DNA of 64,000 nucleotides from Raillietiella orientalis (taxonomy: Eukaryota), in NCBI GenBank assembly GCA_036172245.1, contig JAYWIR010000021.1, positions 1,054,001 through 1,118,000 of the forward strand. Reading direction: 5' to 3'. Shown piece by piece: positions 6,001 to 37,300 of the stretch. The notes below the pieces were generated by a model. It was not told where the DNA came from and did not search any database. It saw only the letters and a list, made by a program, of their open reading frames with translations. The translations under genes and the position numbers were made by a program. Within the stretch, counting starts at the first letter, position 1. Every line of letters starts with the position of its first letter.

Positions 6001-6727
6001 GTGGGATATATCTGAAAAGCCTCGGCGGCGGAGGGCGCGCGAGGATGAGGGAAGCTGCTGCGGGGGACGCGCGGTGGGGAGCGTCGAAGAACACCGCAGC
6101 TGACGCTCCGGGCGGCGAGGCTGCCGCCGCGGGCACCGCGGAGCTGGGAAGCAGTCCGTCCCGCGGAGAAGGGCGCGAGAGGTCGCGGCCCGGAGAAGCT
6201 GTGGAGAGGGGGAAGGGAACGGCCCCCGGGGATTTCCGCTCGCAGTCCTGGTGTGCGGGAACGCTCTCTGGCTCCAGGGCGACCTGCAACGAGAACCCAC
6301 CGGCCTCCCACTCCTGGAAGAAGAGGGAACCGCTTTCTCATGCGCACGCCCTCGCGGGCTTCCACTGCCGGGGGCCGGGTTCCCCCTCCGCCTGCCGCCG
6401 TCGACGTGCCTGGAGGCTTCGTCCAGCTTGGGCTGCGACCTTCCCCGTACTTTCCCGCCCCCCCACCCCACCCCCCGGGAAGAACCGCCCTTCCCTTCCA
6501 AAGGGCGGGAGCGGAGGGAACGAAAGGGTGAGGCGGTGGGCGGGCCGAACCCGAGGACGAGGAGCAAGACCAAGGCGGACCCCCCACCCCCCTCTCGGAG
6601 CGCGGGGGCGGCGGGTGAGGGGTAGGGGGTTCGGGCGCGAGAGAGGTGCGGTCAACAGGAGCGGCGAGGCGCCTGCGGGCAGCGCGGGGAAATGAACGAG
6701 AGGCCACGTACACGTTTCAGTATGAAG

Positions 6728-6789
6728 TTTATTCCATTTTTCCAATAAGTACAGTACACAAAGTACGTTTCTTCGGTGTCTTTTTTATT
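6728..6789 (-). terminator. polyadenylation signals (AATAAA at 6733-6728 and 6789-6784; another at 6910-6905)
   Basis: Plus-strand TTTATT hexamers; TGTA (CFIm-type) motifs lie just upstream of the distal signal on the minus strand. Confidence 0.6.
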
Positions 6790-7119
6790 AGTCTACAAAA
6801 TAAAAACATCTGGAACTGAGGGTGTAGGGGTCGAACAACGTGTCGGGTAAAGAAATAGTTCCTCTACGGCGGAAAGTAACAGAGAAGTATCAAAACTAAT
6901 CACTTTTATTATTCCCAAAAACTCTGACCACCACCCTACTGGTCGCAGCGTCAACTCGTCGTCTCCGTTGTGGCGCAGCAAAGGGTCCTCTCGGACGCCC
7001 CCCCGGGGCTCCACGCTGCCGTGGCACACACCAAAATCCACAAACGACACGGTCTACACACGTCACCACCATTCGTACCCAAGTGGAATGCTCTCGTTGC
7101 TCTTTGAAACCTGGATCGG

Positions 7120-7340
7120 CTTTTTTTTTTGCTTTTTTTTGTGTGTGTGTGTGTGTGTGTTTTTTTTTTTTGGCTTTTCTCTCTTCCTGTTTTTGCTTTT
7201 TTGTGTGTGTTTTTTTTTTTTTTTTCCCTTTCTTGGGGTGGGGGGAAGGGGAGAGTTTTTTTTTTTTTTCTCTCTCTCTCTCGTTTTTTTTTTGTTTTGT
7301 TTTTGGGCCTTTTTTTTTTCTTTTTCTCGTTTTTTTGGAC
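7120..7340. repeat. poly-T/(GT)n low-complexity tract (A/CA-rich on the mRNA)
   Basis: Read directly. Confidence 0.9.
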
Positions 7341-7369
7341 TTGTCCAAAAATTTGGATTTCTGATCTTG

Positions 7370-7395
7370 TGAAAGACAATAGTATTGGAATACTG
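7370..7395 (-). promoter_or_regulatory. adjacent miR-71 8mer (7370-7378) and miR-8/miR-200b/miR-236 7mer-m8 (7389-7395) sites
   Basis: Plus-strand TGAAAGACA and AATACTG, i.e. GUCUUUCA and CAGUAUU on the mRNA. Confidence 0.55.
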
Positions 7396-7995
7396 CGAAT
7401 TCGCGAAAGAGAGCCCAGAACCCGAAGGAAGTCATCGACGGTTGAGGTCTGTTCAGGCGTTTCTTCCTTTGACGCAGGAGAGGAGGAGGAAGGGCACAAA
7501 AGACGTCACGGATGTCTTCCCGATCGGACCGAAATCAAGAACGACTCCTCATCAATCCACAAGAGGGAAAAAACAACGGTGCAAGCGGAAACCAAAAGGA
7601 CAAACAGACGAACGAAAGGAGGGAAGAGGAAAGAGGGGGGGAGGGGGAAAAAAGGAGAAGAAGAAGAAGAAGAAGAAGAAGGAAAAAAAAAAAAAAGAAG
7701 GGATTCGCGAGTTCCAAAACAACCAGCAGAACCAGCGCGACGTCAGGGATGCAGTTTCGCACAGAATCATATCGAAGGGATGGATCTCCGAGCATCTCAT
7801 TGGAACCGAAGCGCAGGCGCGCGCGCGAACGCCCCCCGCGTGCCACGGGGGGGGAGGGCGCGCGCTTTCCTGCTCGCCTCTCTGACTAGTCCCAAGGAAA
7901 TTGCACTCTCTTCGACTAGCTTCCTGAACTCGAAACGAACTCGGATGTTGCCGACAAGAAGGATAACTGATGCTCTCTTTTCAGGCTGAAGATAC

Positions 7996-8014
7996 TGGAA
8001 GACTACTGACTGTT
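7996..8014 (-). promoter_or_regulatory. miR-7 8mer site (GY-box) with extended pairing
   Basis: Plus strand TGGAAGACTA-C-TGA-C-TGTT versus miR-7 UGGAAGACUA-G-UGA-UUU-UGUUG. Confidence 0.65.
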
Positions 8015-8062
8015 CAATACAGCACTTTTTTTTCGTTTTTTTTTCGTTTTCTTCTTCTTGGG

Positions 8063-8084
8063 TGAGTATTTCATCCAGGTACTG
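8063..8084 (-). promoter_or_regulatory. extensively complementary miR-12 site (candidate TDMD trigger)
   Basis: Plus strand TGAGTATT-T-CATC-C-AGGTACTG versus miR-12 UGAGUAUU-A-CAUC-AGGUACUG-GU: 20 of the first 21 miRNA nt match, with one mismatch (nt 9) and a 1-nt target bulge. Confidence 0.85.
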
Positions 8085-8129
8085 TGGGATCACTTCAAGA
8101 AAAGGAAGGGCGAAAGACATTTACTGTTC

Positions 8130-8314
8130 CTAAGGCTTGCAGTAGGAGAACCGGTGGTTCATGTGTTGCGAGAACGACCCGGAGTGAGAGAAACGTTTCA
8201 AGCACTTGGAACACTGGAAAGGCTTTTCTCCACTGTGCAGCCTCTTGTGCTCCGTCAGGTGGTGCTTGTGTTTGAAAGCCTTCGTGCACACGTCGCACTT
8301 GTACGGACGCTGAC
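8130..8314 (-). CDS. zfh1: zfh1/ZEB last coding exon ([61 protein letters not shown])
   Basis: Acceptor ttgttccgcag|, phase 1; last two ZEB fingers and the HMNHRxSYCK ending; TAG at 8132-8130. Confidence 0.96.
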
Positions 8315-8412
8315 CTGCGGAACAAGGAAGGACACACACGTTGTCACCACCGCATTCCCCCCCACCCATCAACCGGCGCCCGCCGCCGCCGCCGCCGCCG
8401 CCGCCAGCTTAC

Positions 8413-8626
8413 CGGAATGCTCGTATTTGTGGCGCGCCAGGCTGCTTTGCTTGGAGAAGGTCTTCTCGCACTGGTCGCAAGGAAACTGGCCGTCGGCGTC
8501 GTCCGTCTTGGAGGACTGCCGCCAGGACTTCTTGTTCGACGGGGTGCAGGGCAACGACGCCTCGCAGACGTAGCCGCCGTCCGGGACCACCAGCTTGACT
8601 TCCGGGCTCGATTTTTCCGTCGATTC
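8413..8626 (-). CDS. zfh1: zfh1/ZEB coding exon 7 (...GQFPCDQCEKTFSKQSSLARHKYEHS)
   Basis: Acceptor cttcttccgcag| and donor CCG|GTAAGC (phase 1); ZEB C-terminal finger SSLARHKYEHSG. Confidence 0.95.
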
Positions 8627-9200
8627 CTGCGGAAGAAGTGAGAGGTTCTCGAAAGGGAAGGAACACACGTACGCACACACGGGAATGCAGCGGGGACCCC
8701 CCCCCCCGCCCCCTGCCACGCGGAAGAGGGGCGCACGACCTCCGGGGTGTCCGACAGTCGGAACCACCTTCCCCCGGCGGGAAGGAGGGACGCGCGTTGC
8801 GGCGGCAGTCGACAGAGGGCGCGGCACTTGCGCGCGCCGCAGCCTCCTCCCGGGTCGTCCTCCCCGGGTCTAACGCGGGGACCTGCCACCGGGAAAGCGG
8901 TGGTGACGCGGGAACCGCAGCGTCCTCGCATCCACAACAAAAATGCAACGCGACGAGCGAGGGACCGCTACCATCACCTTATCAGATCAAAGAGGAGGAA
9001 GCGAAAGCACGCAGAAGCTCACTCACCCCTTCATGTCCGCGATCAAGGAGAAGAGAATCAAGAGAGCAAATTCCGGCGACAGGCAGGGCGGGCGGGGGGC
9101 CCTTCTCGCGGTGCCCATCCGGAGCCGCCGGGCCGCAGTGGAGCCCTCCACTCGGAAACCCCAAGGGGCTACTCGGAAAAAGCAAAGTGGAAGCCTGTAC

Positions 9201-10502
9201 CTGCAGGACACGTTGGCTCGTCGGATCCGGGTTCGCTTCGACGTCATTTCGGGACAGAAAGTGACCTATGACGTCCCTCTTCTTTGTCGCGATCTTCACG
9301 TCCGGGAGCGTCTCTTTGCTCAGGTATTTATACAGTGGAGAATGCCGTTCGGCGGCAGGAGGCGAAGGGTTGAACGTGGTCAGCTGGATCGGAGATTGGG
9401 CAGCCGGCGACTTGGATGGGTTGGCGGCGGCAGTGGCGCAGCAGCCACCACCACCACCACCACCAGCGCCGCTTTCCGGCTCGGCGGTTTCCCGAGGCGG
9501 AGACGGCGTGGCCACCACCGCCGAGTGCTTCTTCTTCGAGAGATCGAGAGGCGCGTCGTCGTACTCGTCCGCCGGGTAGTTGTTGCTCTGGTACACCAGC
9601 GGATGCGTGGAAAGGATCCCGTTCGGGTGGGGCTTCATGCTGCAGAAGGGCGTCTGCACGGACGCCATGGTGGGGGAATAACAAGGGACGTCCTTCCCTT
9701 CTCTCCTGTCGCGCGCCCTCGTGTTCTGGAACCACACTTTCACGACGCGGGACGGGAACTTGATCTTGTCCGCTATCTTGTCGATGTCCTCCCTCTTCGG
9801 GCGGGCATTGATCGAGTAACAGTTTTTCAGCACGTTCAGCTGCTCCTCGGAAAAGAGGGAGCGGACCCGCGCCTTCCTTACGTTTTCATTGAAGTCCTTG
9901 CTGGAATCTTTCGAGGAGTCTCCGCCGTCGATGTCGCTGTCGTAGGTGCGGCAGGGTTGTTGCTTCGCCGCGTCGCCCTGGGCCAGGACTTCCAGCTTCA
10001 GCGCAAGTCCCTCGCGGTCCGCCTGCTTGGCGAAGTCCTGCAGCTGGAAGCTCCTCTGCTTGACGAACGGGTCGTGCCTCTCGCCGCCGCTGCGGGACGC
10101 TTCCGCGAAAGGGTGCGCAGGCGGCTGCGGCGCAGCAGAGGAGGCAGTGTCGTCGGCGTAGCAGCGGTCCTCTTTGTCGTCGATCACCAGGGGCTTCTCG
10201 TCGTCGTCGCTGCGGAAGGTCTCGTTCCGGGCGTCGGAAAGGTACGCTTCCGTCTCGGCGTCCAGGGGCAGGCAGCTGCCGCCGCCCCCGCTACCGTCCC
10301 GGCAGTCGCTCGCCGAGACCAAGGCGAACGGGTTTCGGCGCGGCTGCTGCGCGCCTTCCGGGCTCGGCAGTCTCTTCGTGGGTGCGGTCTCGAGAGACGC
10401 AGCCTTGGTCGCGTAGGTCTGCATGAGGTCGGCGGCGCTGACGACTTCCGAGGGTTTCTCGCTGTCCAAATGGCACGAGGACTTTGGATCGTTCGTCTTT
10501 TT
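9201..10502 (-). CDS. zfh1: zfh1/ZEB coding exon 6 (homeodomain ~9878-9699; PLDLS CtBP motif 9551-9537)
   Basis: Acceptor cctttccccag|, in frame with ORF 8982..10469. Homeodomain RKARVRSLFSEEQL...VKVWFQNTRARDRRE; PLDLSKKK. The 3' end is uncertain: CAG|GTACAG at 9201 or the in-phase GGG|GTGAGT at 9027. Confidence 0.9.
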
Positions 10503-10599
10503 CTGGGGAAAGGGAGACGGAAGGCGTCGGAGCGCTTGCTCGAAAGGGGTGGACGAGAGGAAGGGAAGAAAGCAGGGGAAAGAAAGGAAGAAAGAATAC

Positions 10600-10722
10600 C
10601 TTCGGGAGTGCGAGGCACTTCTTCGTGGTCATGTGCGACGAAAAGGAACCGGAGTGGGAGAAGCGCTTGTTGCAGTTGGGGCACTCGAAAGGTTTTTCCC
10701 CGCTGTGGATGCGCACGTGTTC
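10600..10722 (-). CDS. zfh1: zfh1/ZEB coding exon 5 ([41 protein letters not shown])
   Basis: Acceptor ctttccttccag| and donor AAG|GTATTC; ZEB-family end of the N-terminal finger cluster ([13 protein letters not shown]). Confidence 0.95.
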
Positions 10723-10902
10723 CTGGAAGGAAAGCAGGAGGAGGTTTAAAGAACGGGAAGGTCGTCCTCTTCTTGCCGCCGCACCGGTGCGGCAAGGGCA
10801 GGGCGGGTGGTGGATGGAGCGCGCGCGAGCTGGCAAAACATGCGCGCGTCTCTTGCACGGTGGCGGAGGGCCGCTCGGCAGTGCGGGCAGAGTCGCTCTT
10901 AC

Positions 10903-11043
10903 CTTGAGGTGGTGCTTGAACTTGAAGGCCTTTTGGCATTCTGGGCATTTGAACTTTCTGAGGATGACACTCTCGTCATGACTGATCATGTGCCTCTGCA
11001 ACCTGTACACGTTGAGGAAGTTCTTCTTGCAAATGTGGCAGGT
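10903..11043 (-). CDS. zfh1: zfh1/ZEB coding exon 4 (TCHICKKNFLNVYRLQRHMISHDESVILRKFKCPECQKAFKFKHHLK)
   Basis: Acceptor gtgttccag| and donor AAG|GTAAGA; Zfh1 signature NVYRLQRHMISHDES..LRKFKC. Confidence 0.95.
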
Positions 11044-34300: not shown

Positions 34301-37300
34301 AGGACGCAGCACAAAAACGGAGGGATGCTGGAAGAGGATCCGGGAGCACAATGGAGGTTCCCCGATTACCTGGAGGGATAAAGAACTTGGCGCAGCCCGA
34401 CCGCACGGGAAGAGAACGGGATGGAGCGAGGCAGGACGGCGACAGAGAGAGGATTCTTCTTGCTTCCCGAGGAGTGCGTCGGAGCGCGCGTCGGGATTGA
34501 GGGGAGGCTGGAAAGAAAAGGATGGCAAGGGAAAAAGCGCGGGAACGGCGCGGCTCACTCCTCGAACAGCAGCTCCCATGTGCCCCTGCGGTTGTCGTGG
34601 TGACCGGCTACGGGACCGCCGGAGGCCCGAAAAGAGGAATCGGGTTTGGGTTGAAGGTCCCTGCTGCTCCTGGAGAAGGGGCATTCGGGGTGGTTCCGGA
34701 CCCGGGCGCTACGGGAAGGGGCGTTCGGGGCGCCTGGTTTTGGGCTTCCCGCCACGACCCCTAGCTCGCCTCGCCCGCTCTCCTCTTCTTCCTCCTCTTC
34801 CGGGAGCAGCCCGCATCCCGTCCGCCCGCCCGCGCGCGCATCCCTCTCTTTTGTCGCTTCCCGTCGCCCGAGGTGCGTGCCCACGCCCATGCGGGCTCCA
34901 CGGGACTGCGGGAAAAGGGGGAGGGGGAGGGGAAGGGAGAGCCCGCACGCACTCGGCAGCGCGGGAGGAAAAAGCGTCGAGGCAGCCAGGCAACCCGGAA
35001 GAGGAACGAGATGGGTGGAGTGCCTGCGGGGTCCGAGAACAGATAGGGAAGGCAGAAGGACCCTCCTTTCTCCTGGGAGCGGACGGGACGATCCCTTCTC
35101 CCCCTACAAGCGTCATCGAGAGTGGGGAGGACGCTGGGCTCGGTGGGAAGCGCCTCTGCGTGGGTCCCTGAAAAAGCGCCTGCCCCCTTCGTCCGCCTCC
35201 GGAGGAGATGGGAAGGGGGCACAGAGTTCCCTCCCCTCCGCCACCAGGATGGTGGAAGAGCCGCTGCGGCAAGGGAGGCGCCCACGCTCGGGATCACGGG
35301 CTCAGGAGAGGTACGGTCGGGGACAGCACTGGTGCGGTGGGCGCAGCCTCCTGACCGCTTCCAATCGCATGAATGGACAAGGTGGGGGGAGTCATCCCGG
35401 AGACGAGGAGATGGGAAGAGGCGAATCTCCCGGGAGGGGTTTCATCACAAAAATTCCCGTAGGGGGCCAGAGTACTCCCATTGTTCCGGCCTTCATCGGG
35501 GGCCTCCGGTTTTAACCGCTACCGGTGCCACGCCCGAATGTTTCTGCCAACCAGCGCCATTGCAGGAAAAACTCGGAGCCCAACGACGCAATGGCGTCAG
35601 TTTCTGCCTGAGTATTCGATCGCACGACGCACGGTGCCGCGCGGGGAAGCCTTAACCACAAAACCTCCGAAGCGGGCTAGGGAAAAAAAAAATTTCCGGT
35701 AGGAGGATGTGAGAAGGGTGCCTCCCTCCTCCCCCGCCTTGGAGCCTCTTCTTCGAGCGGGGGAGCCTCAGGATGAGCAGAGGAGGGTCCGACCCAGAGG
35801 AAATCTCCCACCTCCTCCCGCCCCTCTCCTTCTGGAGAAGGCGAAACGACTCCTCTGGAGCCGCCACACTCCCCGGCTCGCCCTCGCCCCACTGCTTTCT
35901 CTTCCACCCGTTCCCTTTCTGCCTTCCAGAGGGGAAAGAGCCCCGAGTCAGTTGGACGACAGAGGCGGGAAAACGAGGGTAAGGAGGAGCTCGCTCGCTT
36001 CCGAGCCAGTTGGCGTCTCCCTGTTGCCTTGGCTCCCGGCGCCCAGACTCCCAGTGGGAGAGGGGAGAAGCGAACGGGGCAAAAGGTAGCTCTCACCGGA
36101 GCCTTCCCGAGACGGACCAAAGAGCGACACCGGAGTGCTCCTCTCCTTTCCGAAAGGGGAAGGAGAGAAAATAGGGAAAGGAAACAGGGTTGCTGCCTCC
36201 CTCGAAGGGTGCGGTCGGACACCCTGGCATCGCACTCCTCTCCTTTCCTCTTGTTCCTTTTTCGTGCCCCTTTCAAGGAAGAGCAGAGAGTCTTCTCGGC
36301 CCTGATCCTGGAGGCGCCCTTGGGAACTCTCCGGGGGAGCGAGCTCCTTCCGGCTCAAGACGCTCTTCCGGGAGTCACACAGAGCGCAGTGAGGGACACC
36401 CTGCGGCGGCGTCCGTCCCCTGGCGTGCTGGGCGTCGGACGGCGCCATCCCTCGGGCCCGGGAAGAGTGGCACGTCTCCCTCTTCTCCTTCCCCTCCCCG
36501 CTTTCCCTCGGCTCTGCTCGCGTTGCACTCCGCAGACGAAGGCGGGAAGGAAGCTCCTCAGCTCTTCTTCTCCGCGGAATAGCTTCCAGAACCCTGGTTG
36601 CTTGGATACAGGAAGGGAGGAGTGTCCTGGGGCCAAAGGAGGTAGGTAGGTAGGGCTCGCAGAGGTGAGGTTGCCCTCTCGTCGGCGGACGATCCCGCAG
36701 TATTGCGTGCAGGAGAGCAAAGAATAGAAGTTGCCGCCGGTGCTGACGTCACGCCACGTGGATGCAGCAGATGGGTAGGTCGTCCGTCCGGGGTGACTGA
36801 AGAGGCATCCCGGAGGAGAGAAGTAGGACTCCTTTCGAGAACAGAGAGCGGATCGCTGCTTCCCTCTTTTCGAGGAAGCCACGCGCGTACGCGCGAACGC
36901 TCGGGAAGCGACGCCTCTTCCGCCCTTCGCTTCCTGAGGAGCGCTCCATCCACTGCGCCCTCCTGCAGGATGGGGATCACGGCTGCTGCGGAAGGATGAT
37001 GGTGCCCGTAACAGCAAAGGTGCAGCACGCGCTCGCTCGCACCCTCCCCCCCGGTCTCCATGGCAACGCCGTGACCGCGCTCCAGGGAGGCTCCCAATTG
37101 TGATCAGGAACATCGAGGGTAAAAGGGGACGACGGTGAGAGGGACGCCGCCGCCGCCGCCGCCGCCGCCCGAAGGGATCTCGCCCGAGACCAGGTGTCGC
37201 TCCCGCGGGTAACAATGGAGTGATCAGCCACAGGCAGAAGATCGCATTGTTTGCTCCTGTGGAGCGCAGCCTCCAGGCTCCGGCGTCGCTCGCCGGGAGG

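Follow-up and report, generated by a model that had tools for sequence, protein, structure and literature searches.

The locus considered here raises the question of what a 22-nt element just downstream of the stop codon of a zfh1-like gene does. It might act as a counterpart of the trigger known from the Drosophila zfh1 mRNA and bring about the loss of miR-12 by TDMD, it might chiefly repress the mRNA that carries it, or its likeness to a miR-12 site might have another origin. A preliminary description of the window (the whole 64-kb stretch of DNA that was analyzed) had pointed to a near-perfect miR-12 complement at 8063..8084, 45 nt past the stop codon, and both the sequence and the coordinates proved to be exact. 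The + strand letters of 8063-8084 are tgagtatttcatccaggtactg, and their reverse complement is the site in the mRNA sense. Throughout, the miRNA reference is the dme-miR-12-5p sequence given by Sheng et al. 2023 (PMC10102002, Supplementary Data 1). The site and its immediate surroundings comprise the following features:

8084..8063, minus strand: miR-12 site, in mRNA sense 5'-CAGUACCUGGAUGAAAUACUCA-3', from its pairing to dme-miR-12-5p
8070..8063, minus strand: 8mer seed match AAUACUCA, with miR-12 nt 2-8 paired and an A facing nt 1
8071, minus strand: A:A mismatch facing miR-12 nt 9, the sole central mismatch of the computed duplex
8072..8084, minus strand: 3' pairing block CAGUACCUGGAUG, with miR-12 nt 10-21 paired and one bulged G at 8075 or 8076
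8046-8066 / 8090-8109, no strand assigned: weak, imperfect inverted repeat found by folding, which would put the site in a hairpin loop

Against dme-miR-12-5p, the site pairs with nt 1-8 and nt 10-21 and leaves nt 22-23 free. Its 3' pairing consists of 8-9 contiguous pairs (nt 13/14-21) and 3-4 more (nt 10-12/13). Because the target carries GG, there are two equivalent placements of the bulge (8075 or 8076), and the arrangement originally described, with pairing at nt 10-13, a bulge, and pairing at nt 14-21, is one of the two. Modeling of the duplex, which had been proposed as a check, gave -27.6 kcal/mol, the best value among the 31,986 31-nt segments of a sliding scan of the 64 kb. The background of that scan has a mean of -7.82 kcal/mol and an sd of 2.64, and the next unrelated segment reaches -20.7 kcal/mol. 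As references, a perfect miR-12 complement scores -39.0 kcal/mol, and the published Drosophila trigger scores -22.0 (-22.1 in the paper). On both strands of the 64 kb (128 kb of sequence), there are only two 7mer-m8 seed matches to miR-12. The other one, a 7mer-m8/8mer match GAAUACUCAG at 35610-35616 (-), lies far upstream in the same orientation; it has no evident 3' pairing, and its region is not among the best duplex segments. The mRNA-sense local fold around the site has an energy of -15.8 kcal/mol (z -1.81), and 9/200 shuffles fold equally well. In a permissive Rfam scan, the inverted repeat at 8046-8066/8090-8109 matched unrelated miRNA families, from plants among others, weakly and at chance level.

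The gene that hosts the site had been named zfh1, and domain analysis bears this out. Pfam searches recovered two C2H2 clusters on either side of a homeodomain, which is the ZEB/zfh1 architecture, and the last-exon protein sequence shares 87-95% identity with insect zinc finger protein 1/zfh1 and nematode zag-1. As judged from this architecture and conservation, the host gene is a zfh1/ZEB orthologue. In the direction of transcription, its features are as follows:

10618..11043, minus strand: N-terminal cluster of C2H2 zinc fingers, interrupted by an intron (Pfam)
9702..9869, minus strand: homeodomain stretch of the large exon (PF00046, E 1.9e-15, residues 254-309 of the 8985-10628(-) translation)
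8414..8640, minus strand: penultimate coding exon with the finger FPCDQCEKTFSKQSSLARHKYEHS, 5' end approximate (frame check)
8413/8412, minus strand: donor G/GTAAGC upstream of the last exon, read from the sequence
8130..8314, minus strand: last coding exon with the C-terminal C2H2 zinc fingers, AG acceptor at 8316..8315
8132..8130, minus strand: stop codon TAG of the zfh1-like ORF (reading frame)
8123..8121, minus strand: second in-frame stop TAA, 9 nt later (reading frame)
6710..8129, minus strand: putative 3' UTR of ~1.4 kb, 3' end approximate (poly(A) signals and GC drop)
6733..6728, 6789..6784, and 6910..6905, minus strand: three AATAAA signals (sequence scan)

The 3' UTR is placed at ~8129..6710 because of the three AATAAA signals and a drop in GC content, which is 33-55% within this region versus about 70% beyond it. 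The encoded protein ends in KP* versus KPYRE* in nearly all orthologues, so that the end of the ORF (8121-8135, -) is three residues short of the near-universal ending. In the window gene, an earlier stop seems to have replaced the ancestral one, and as a result the miR-12 site lies unusually near the stop, at 45 nt compared with 290-1,620 nt in the other loci described below.

The window had been characterized as unlike Drosophila in composition, and this holds: GC along the 64 kb ranges from 55 to 72%, and the variable exon of the gene attains at best 39-48% identity to any insect protein found (termite, beetles, cockroach). BLAST against the fetched proteins and loci recovered no close relative of the window gene, and its best match in the ESM Atlas is a generic homeodomain cluster (0.90). 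In a quick, unfinished maximum-likelihood tree of 24 of the 271 fetched proteins, four loci, and the window, the gene falls among arthropod zfh1 proteins, in a polytomy and on a long branch, with cockroach, termite, and beetle sequences as the nearest rows. The source is an ecdysozoan, most probably an arthropod, and clearly no Drosophila. A side feature of the region is that its noncoding DNA (about 62-72% GC) is richer in GC than its exons and 3' UTR (33-55%), a composition unusual for an arthropod; only four islands below 52% GC occur in the 64 kb.

Pairing computed with a fly miRNA is pertinent only to the extent that miR-12 is itself conserved. According to tables in three papers, miR-12 of Ixodes scapularis is 23/23 identical to that of the fly, as is that of the amphipod Parhyale, which in addition has 0 mismatches to the Daphnia pulex genome, and oyster miR-12 is identical over nt 1-21 (21/21) and has an A at nt 22. 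The same miR-12 21-mer appears in further papers on mosquitoes and a crayfish. Since nt 1-21 of miR-12 do not vary among fly, tick, amphipod/Daphnia, and oyster, it is reasonable to assume that the species of the window has the same nt 1-21.

The preliminary description had cited Drosophila zfh1 as a miR-12 trigger, and the published record agrees: the trigger is validated and Dora dependent (PMC10102002). In that study, Sheng et al. (2023) found the zfh1/miR-12-5p pair by AGO1-CLASH in S2 cells, where deletion of the trigger, a 28-nt element in their Supplementary Data 1, raised miR-12 and reduced its 3' extension; miR-12 was also up in Dora-knockout cells. The same source states that the Bartel group reached the same five triggers, and in its 124-insect alignment, the conservation score of the zfh1 trigger is 3.87 versus 5.5 for that of AGO1. 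Zfh1:miR-12 is listed among the validated triggers in two later papers, including PMC12144122. The relevant entry of PMC1180435 pairs zfh1 with mir-5 and not with miR-12.

The proposal that the gene-miRNA pair is old was addressed by a comparison of zfh1/ZEB flanks. A profile search with the last exon yielded metagenome loci with zfh1/ZEB C termini and flanking DNA, of which the best 80 of 144 confirmed loci were taken; one of them (L050) has no stop in frame and was left out, giving a scan set of 79 loci plus the window. In each sequence the frame was traced to the stop, and up to 3,000 nt downstream, assumed from its position to be 3' UTR in the metagenome loci, was scanned for a miR-12 6mer seed match accompanied by at least 6 contiguous Watson-Crick pairs to nt 11 or later that start at most 14 nt from the seed match. 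These criteria are post hoc, having been fixed after the first matches, and were identical in every control. Real miR-12 on the sense strand retrieved a site in 13/80 sequences (the window and 12/79 of the loci, themselves from the best 80 of 144), which fall into 6 groups by C-terminal tail, five of them besides that of the window. The reverse complement gave 0/80, and 200 dinucleotide shuffles gave a mean of 0.325 sequences and a maximum of 2. With 400 permuted miR-12 decoys, the mean was 0.85 and the maximum 11 sequences (tail groups: mean 0.53, maximum 4), and none of the 400 matched the counts of 13 sequences and 6 groups obtained with real miR-12. The expectation from these controls is about 0.3-0.9 sequences. 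The claim of a conserved site is sustained for 13/80 sequences of this comparison (best 80 of 144 loci) but not as a universal feature, given that 67/80 sequences and 16/22 C-terminal tail groups have no site, four of the site-negative groups having <300 nt of flank. More informative is the termite-like locus L004, which shares 95% identity with Coptotermes zfh1: neither it nor the five other loci that have its tail contain a site, and four of them were scanned over 2,988 nt. A relaxed search for the 3' core and a seed match with up to 2 mismatches recovered no decayed copies in the termite-like or other negative loci. One doubtful decayed site, GUACCUUGUAGCUCGUACUCU, 144 nt past the stop in a GC-rich arthropod-type locus (L016), retains the 3' core and has a G facing nt 7 in the seed; it was not counted as a match.

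The loci with sites are spread over several lineages. Six cladoceran-like loci end in the same C-terminal tail as Daphnia magna zfh1, with 61-77% protein identity to it in the three tested, and all six carry AAGUACCAAGCAAUACUCA, which is the longest invariant block among their four variants in a region with a mean identity of 62%. Springtail-like sites are present in L047 (AGUACCUGUGGAAUACUCA), whose last exon is 98% identical to Folsomia candida zfh1, and in L051 (CGUACCUGCCAGAAUACUCA). The bivalve-like loci L031 (ACCUGAGAAGCAAUACUCA) and L037 (GCCUGAUAAGCAAUACUCA) share the tail of a Mercenaria mercenaria ZEB1-like protein. Two further loci belong to unplaced lineages, L013, which is insect-like (48.7% identity to Pediculus over 597 aa), and L033; both carry ACCAGUACC, which like the fly site pairs with nt 15-23; a short loop and then a 6mer seed match come after it. 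The recurrence of the site in cladoceran-like, springtail-like, bivalve-like, and the two unplaced lineages, far above the controls, bears out the proposed age of the gene-miRNA pair. The energies of the 3' half (nt 11-23, ViennaRNA) are -16.4 kcal/mol for the window, -15.9 for L013 and L033, -15.6 for the fly trigger, -12.5 and -11.0 for the springtail-like sites, -11.4 and -10.1 for the bivalve-like sites, and -9.1 to -9.5 for the cladoceran-like sites, which have only 6 contiguous 3' pairs and stand at the weak edge of the validated range. The window copy is the most complementary of the sites found. Across loci, the distance from stop to site ranges from 45 nt to about 1,600 nt, and outside the site, the window UTR has only low-complexity or simple-repeat alignments with the other 79 flanks. 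Every lineage variant breaks the pairing somewhere in nt 9-12, and none pairs continuously through nt 9-11, a central interruption that fits selection against slicing.

Some smaller similarities among these flanks may be recorded here. The bivalve-like and cladoceran-like sites (L031:1975-1993, L037:1913-1931, L001:2433-2451) have in common a 12-mer, AAGCAAUACUCA, made up of the seed match and four central nucleotides that pair poorly with miR-12. A heptamer, AAGUGAU, lies 2-5 nt upstream of the 3' pairing block in the window (8085-8100, -) and in L001, L012, and L014; being common to the window and three of the four cladoceran-like variants, it could be a conserved flank or a coincidence. In a group defined by the tail MKNQYKYCKPP (L062-L080), 12/14 loci share a conserved block, about 570-1,000 nt past the stop, that has a 7mer-A1 match to the miR-12 seed, ACAUACUCA, at its end and lacks a run of 6 contiguous Watson-Crick 3' pairs; the flanks of the remaining two, L075 and L080, are only 159 and 620 nt long. 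This block suggests a seed-only miR-12 site in a further ZEB lineage. A 7mer-m8 match to another miRNA, miR-8/miR-200 (CAGUAUU, scored with the oyster miR-8 sequence), occurs at 7389-7395 (-) of the window, four times in the vertebrate-type locus L039, and one to three times in 12/14 of the MKNQYKYCKPP-tail loci; the cladoceran-like and springtail-like flanks contain none.

Before the function of the site is considered, two explanations that would deprive it of one need to be weighed. With several hundred known miRNAs open to the preliminary reader for matching, there is some room for a chance resemblance without function. Against this, the duplex energy stands 7 sd outside the background of the window, and its seed match is one of two in 128 kb; moreover, the validated Drosophila case involves the same miRNA and the same gene, and the 12 other zfh1/ZEB flanks with similar sites far outnumber the 0.3-0.9 expected. 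A match to miR-12 by chance is excluded for the window site, and we accord a functionless resemblance practically no credence. The second explanation holds that the + strand is a miR-12-like hairpin gene antisense to the zfh1 UTR, that is, a miR-12 paralogue, with the complementarity as its by-product. One substitution and one inserted base are indeed all that separate the stretch 8063-8084 from miR-12 nt 1-21. Yet the whole window contains no Rfam match at gathering score; a permissive Rfam scan of 7900-8250 gave five weak matches to unrelated families and none to mir-12; and the fold of this strand (z -1.26, equaled by 27/200 shuffles) provides no arm-length stem facing the miR-12-like stretch. 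For want of a mir-12 match and of such a stem, a mir-12 precursor hairpin on the + strand was rejected, and we view an antisense miRNA gene as very improbable.

A functional site leaves the question of its outcome, for which the features collated for TDMD triggers provide a yardstick. Section 11 of PMC10899785 describes seed pairing as universal in such triggers, and the window site has the 8mer AAUACUCA. The same review gives at least 6 contiguous 3' pairs, often from nt 12-13, for 12/13 validated triggers as opposed to 3-5 bp in ordinary sites, with 3' energies of -9.6 to -17.1 kcal/mol computed with a program other than the ViennaRNA used here; on this scale, the contiguous 3' pairs of the window site exceed the minimum and its -16.4 kcal/mol lies within the range. 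Lying 45 nt past the stop in what is probably 3' UTR, the site is clear of the ribosome shadow of roughly 15 nt (PMC12144122), and comparable sites are found in 12/79 other flanks (5 further tail groups). The center differs: validated triggers have 3-11 unpaired nucleotides that break nt 9 and 10, a loop that is common though not universal (PMC10899785), whereas the window site has a mismatch at nt 9 alone, pairs nt 10-12, and carries one bulged G. Of the TDMD architecture attributed to the site at the outset, the seed and the extensive 3' pairing are thus present, and the central loop is reduced to a single unpaired miRNA nucleotide. The unbroken nt 9-12 helix of a slicing site is likewise lacking, with the A:A at nt 9 and the bulge at nt 13/14.

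This geometry leaves room for the reading that the site is an unusually potent miR-12 target and chiefly represses zfh1, by deadenylation and decay or by AGO slicing between target positions 10 and 11, with little effect on the level of miR-12. The nucleotides on either side of the scissile bond (nt 10-11) are paired, the mismatch being confined to nt 9, and the modest 3' pairing of the cladoceran-like and bivalve-like sites (6-7 bp) could be strong supplementary pairing. On the other side, efficient slicing needs a continuous helix, which is broken here by the nt-9 mismatch and the bulge, a central interruption is found in every lineage variant, and the miRNA-class AGO1 of arthropods is a poor slicer. 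The account in PMC10899785 cuts both ways: the 8mer is the most effective seed type, and centrally paired targets fall between slicing and TDMD, with structures showing that the TDMD conformation does not accommodate central pairing; at the same time, TDMD can in some instances be induced by triggers with central complementarity, and it is the run of at least 6 contiguous 3' bp that marks triggers against the 3-5 bp of ordinary sites. In Drosophila, extensively complementary siRNA-like sites can trigger decay of Ago1-loaded small RNAs (PMC8127995), and the Drosophila counterpart of the present site causes loss of miR-12 (PMC10102002). On balance, repression or slicing as the chief outcome appears possible but rather unlikely. 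It is also not mutually exclusive with TDMD, and miR-12 probably exerts ordinary repression of zfh1 as well.

The reading that we favor, to which we would assign a probability of roughly 55%, is that the 22-nt element is a functional and old miR-12 site in the 3' UTR of a zfh1/ZEB gene, a counterpart of the Drosophila trigger with the same TDMD action. The site, its pairing, its place in the gene, and its recurrence in other lineages are established here, and we infer that the site belongs to the mature mRNA, that the species possesses a canonical miR-12, and that the result is decay of the miRNA. In such a mechanism, AGO1-miR-12 would dock through the 8mer seed match, and pairing would then zip through nt 10-21, drawing the miRNA's 3' end from the PAZ pocket, while the nt-9 mismatch and the bulged G would hinder slicing. 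The resulting long-lived, distorted complex would be recognized by the ZSWIM8/Dora ubiquitin ligase, leading to degradation of AGO1 and loss of miR-12. Cells that transcribe zfh1 would, in consequence, clear miR-12.

From the flank comparison, the link between miR-12 and zfh1 looks much older than flies, and the distribution of sites suggests that the interaction predates insects and perhaps arthropods. Because the same type of site recurs in branchiopod-like, collembolan-like, and bivalve-like genes, the interaction may even be as old as miR-12 itself. We tentatively raise a stronger version, which we think doubtful at present, in which zfh1/ZEB:miR-12 would be a TDMD pair inherited from the protostome ancestor and as old as miR-12. 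On this view, the ancestral site would have started as a nearly complete complement whose center was eroded separately in each lineage while the seed and a GUACC core were kept, and the window copy would be close to the ancestral state. If true, this would be the oldest known trigger, and it would mean that ZEB-family mRNAs have a conserved noncoding job, that of removing one particular miRNA from cells in which they are turned on.

The zfh1:miR-12 trigger itself was already known; what is new is the recurrence of the zfh1/ZEB site beyond Drosophila and the unusually complementary copy in the window. Our literature search found no report of a zfh1 miR-12 site outside Drosophila; the primary report, Kingston et al. 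2022, which is said to describe the Drosophila zfh1 trigger for miR-12-5p in Mol Cell, may address its conservation. Few TDMD triggers have been validated, and knowledge of how old they are is largely limited to vertebrates. The conservation of a TDMD trigger over about half a billion years now becomes directly testable, since miR-12 is sequence-identical across these animals and their sites could consequently be assayed in Drosophila S2 cells. The sites also form a natural series, with between 6 and 12 3' pairs and a central loop of 1 to 11 nt, that could serve as a probe of the pairing geometry read by ZSWIM8/Dora.

Among known systems, the closest is the Drosophila zfh1 trigger, with which the window site shares the host gene family, the miRNA, a position in the 3' UTR (putative in the window), the 8mer AAUACUCA, and CAGUACC pairing to the miRNA's 3' half. 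The two differ in that the fly site has an 11-nt target loop, pairs nt 15-23, scores -22 kcal/mol, and has been tested experimentally, whereas the window site, known from its sequence, combines the nt-9 mismatch with a bulge of 1 nt, is paired at nt 10-21 with nt 22-23 free, and scores -27.6 kcal/mol; outside CAGUACC...AAUACUCA, the two UTRs are not alignable. In the degree of pairing, the window site is reminiscent of the Cyrano lncRNA of vertebrates and its miR-7 site, which combines near-complete complementarity with a small central interruption. As summarized in PMC10899785, Cyrano likewise couples a strong seed to very long 3' pairing (14 contiguous nt), but it is a lncRNA host for another miRNA in another clade, and its TDMD is experimentally established. 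The mus308 site for hairpin-derived siRNAs in Drosophila (PMC8127995) resembles the window site in its high complementarity, including nt 10-11, and sliced sites of this type can trigger Dora-dependent loss of the Ago1-held small RNA; it differs from the window site, whose helix is broken by the nt-9 mismatch and the bulge. Finally, in the ZEB1/ZEB2-miR-200 (miR-8) axis, the same transcription factor family is under the control of 3' UTR miRNA sites, through a different miRNA and through canonical seed-only sites. That axis is a feedback loop, and its sites repress the mRNA, not the miRNA.
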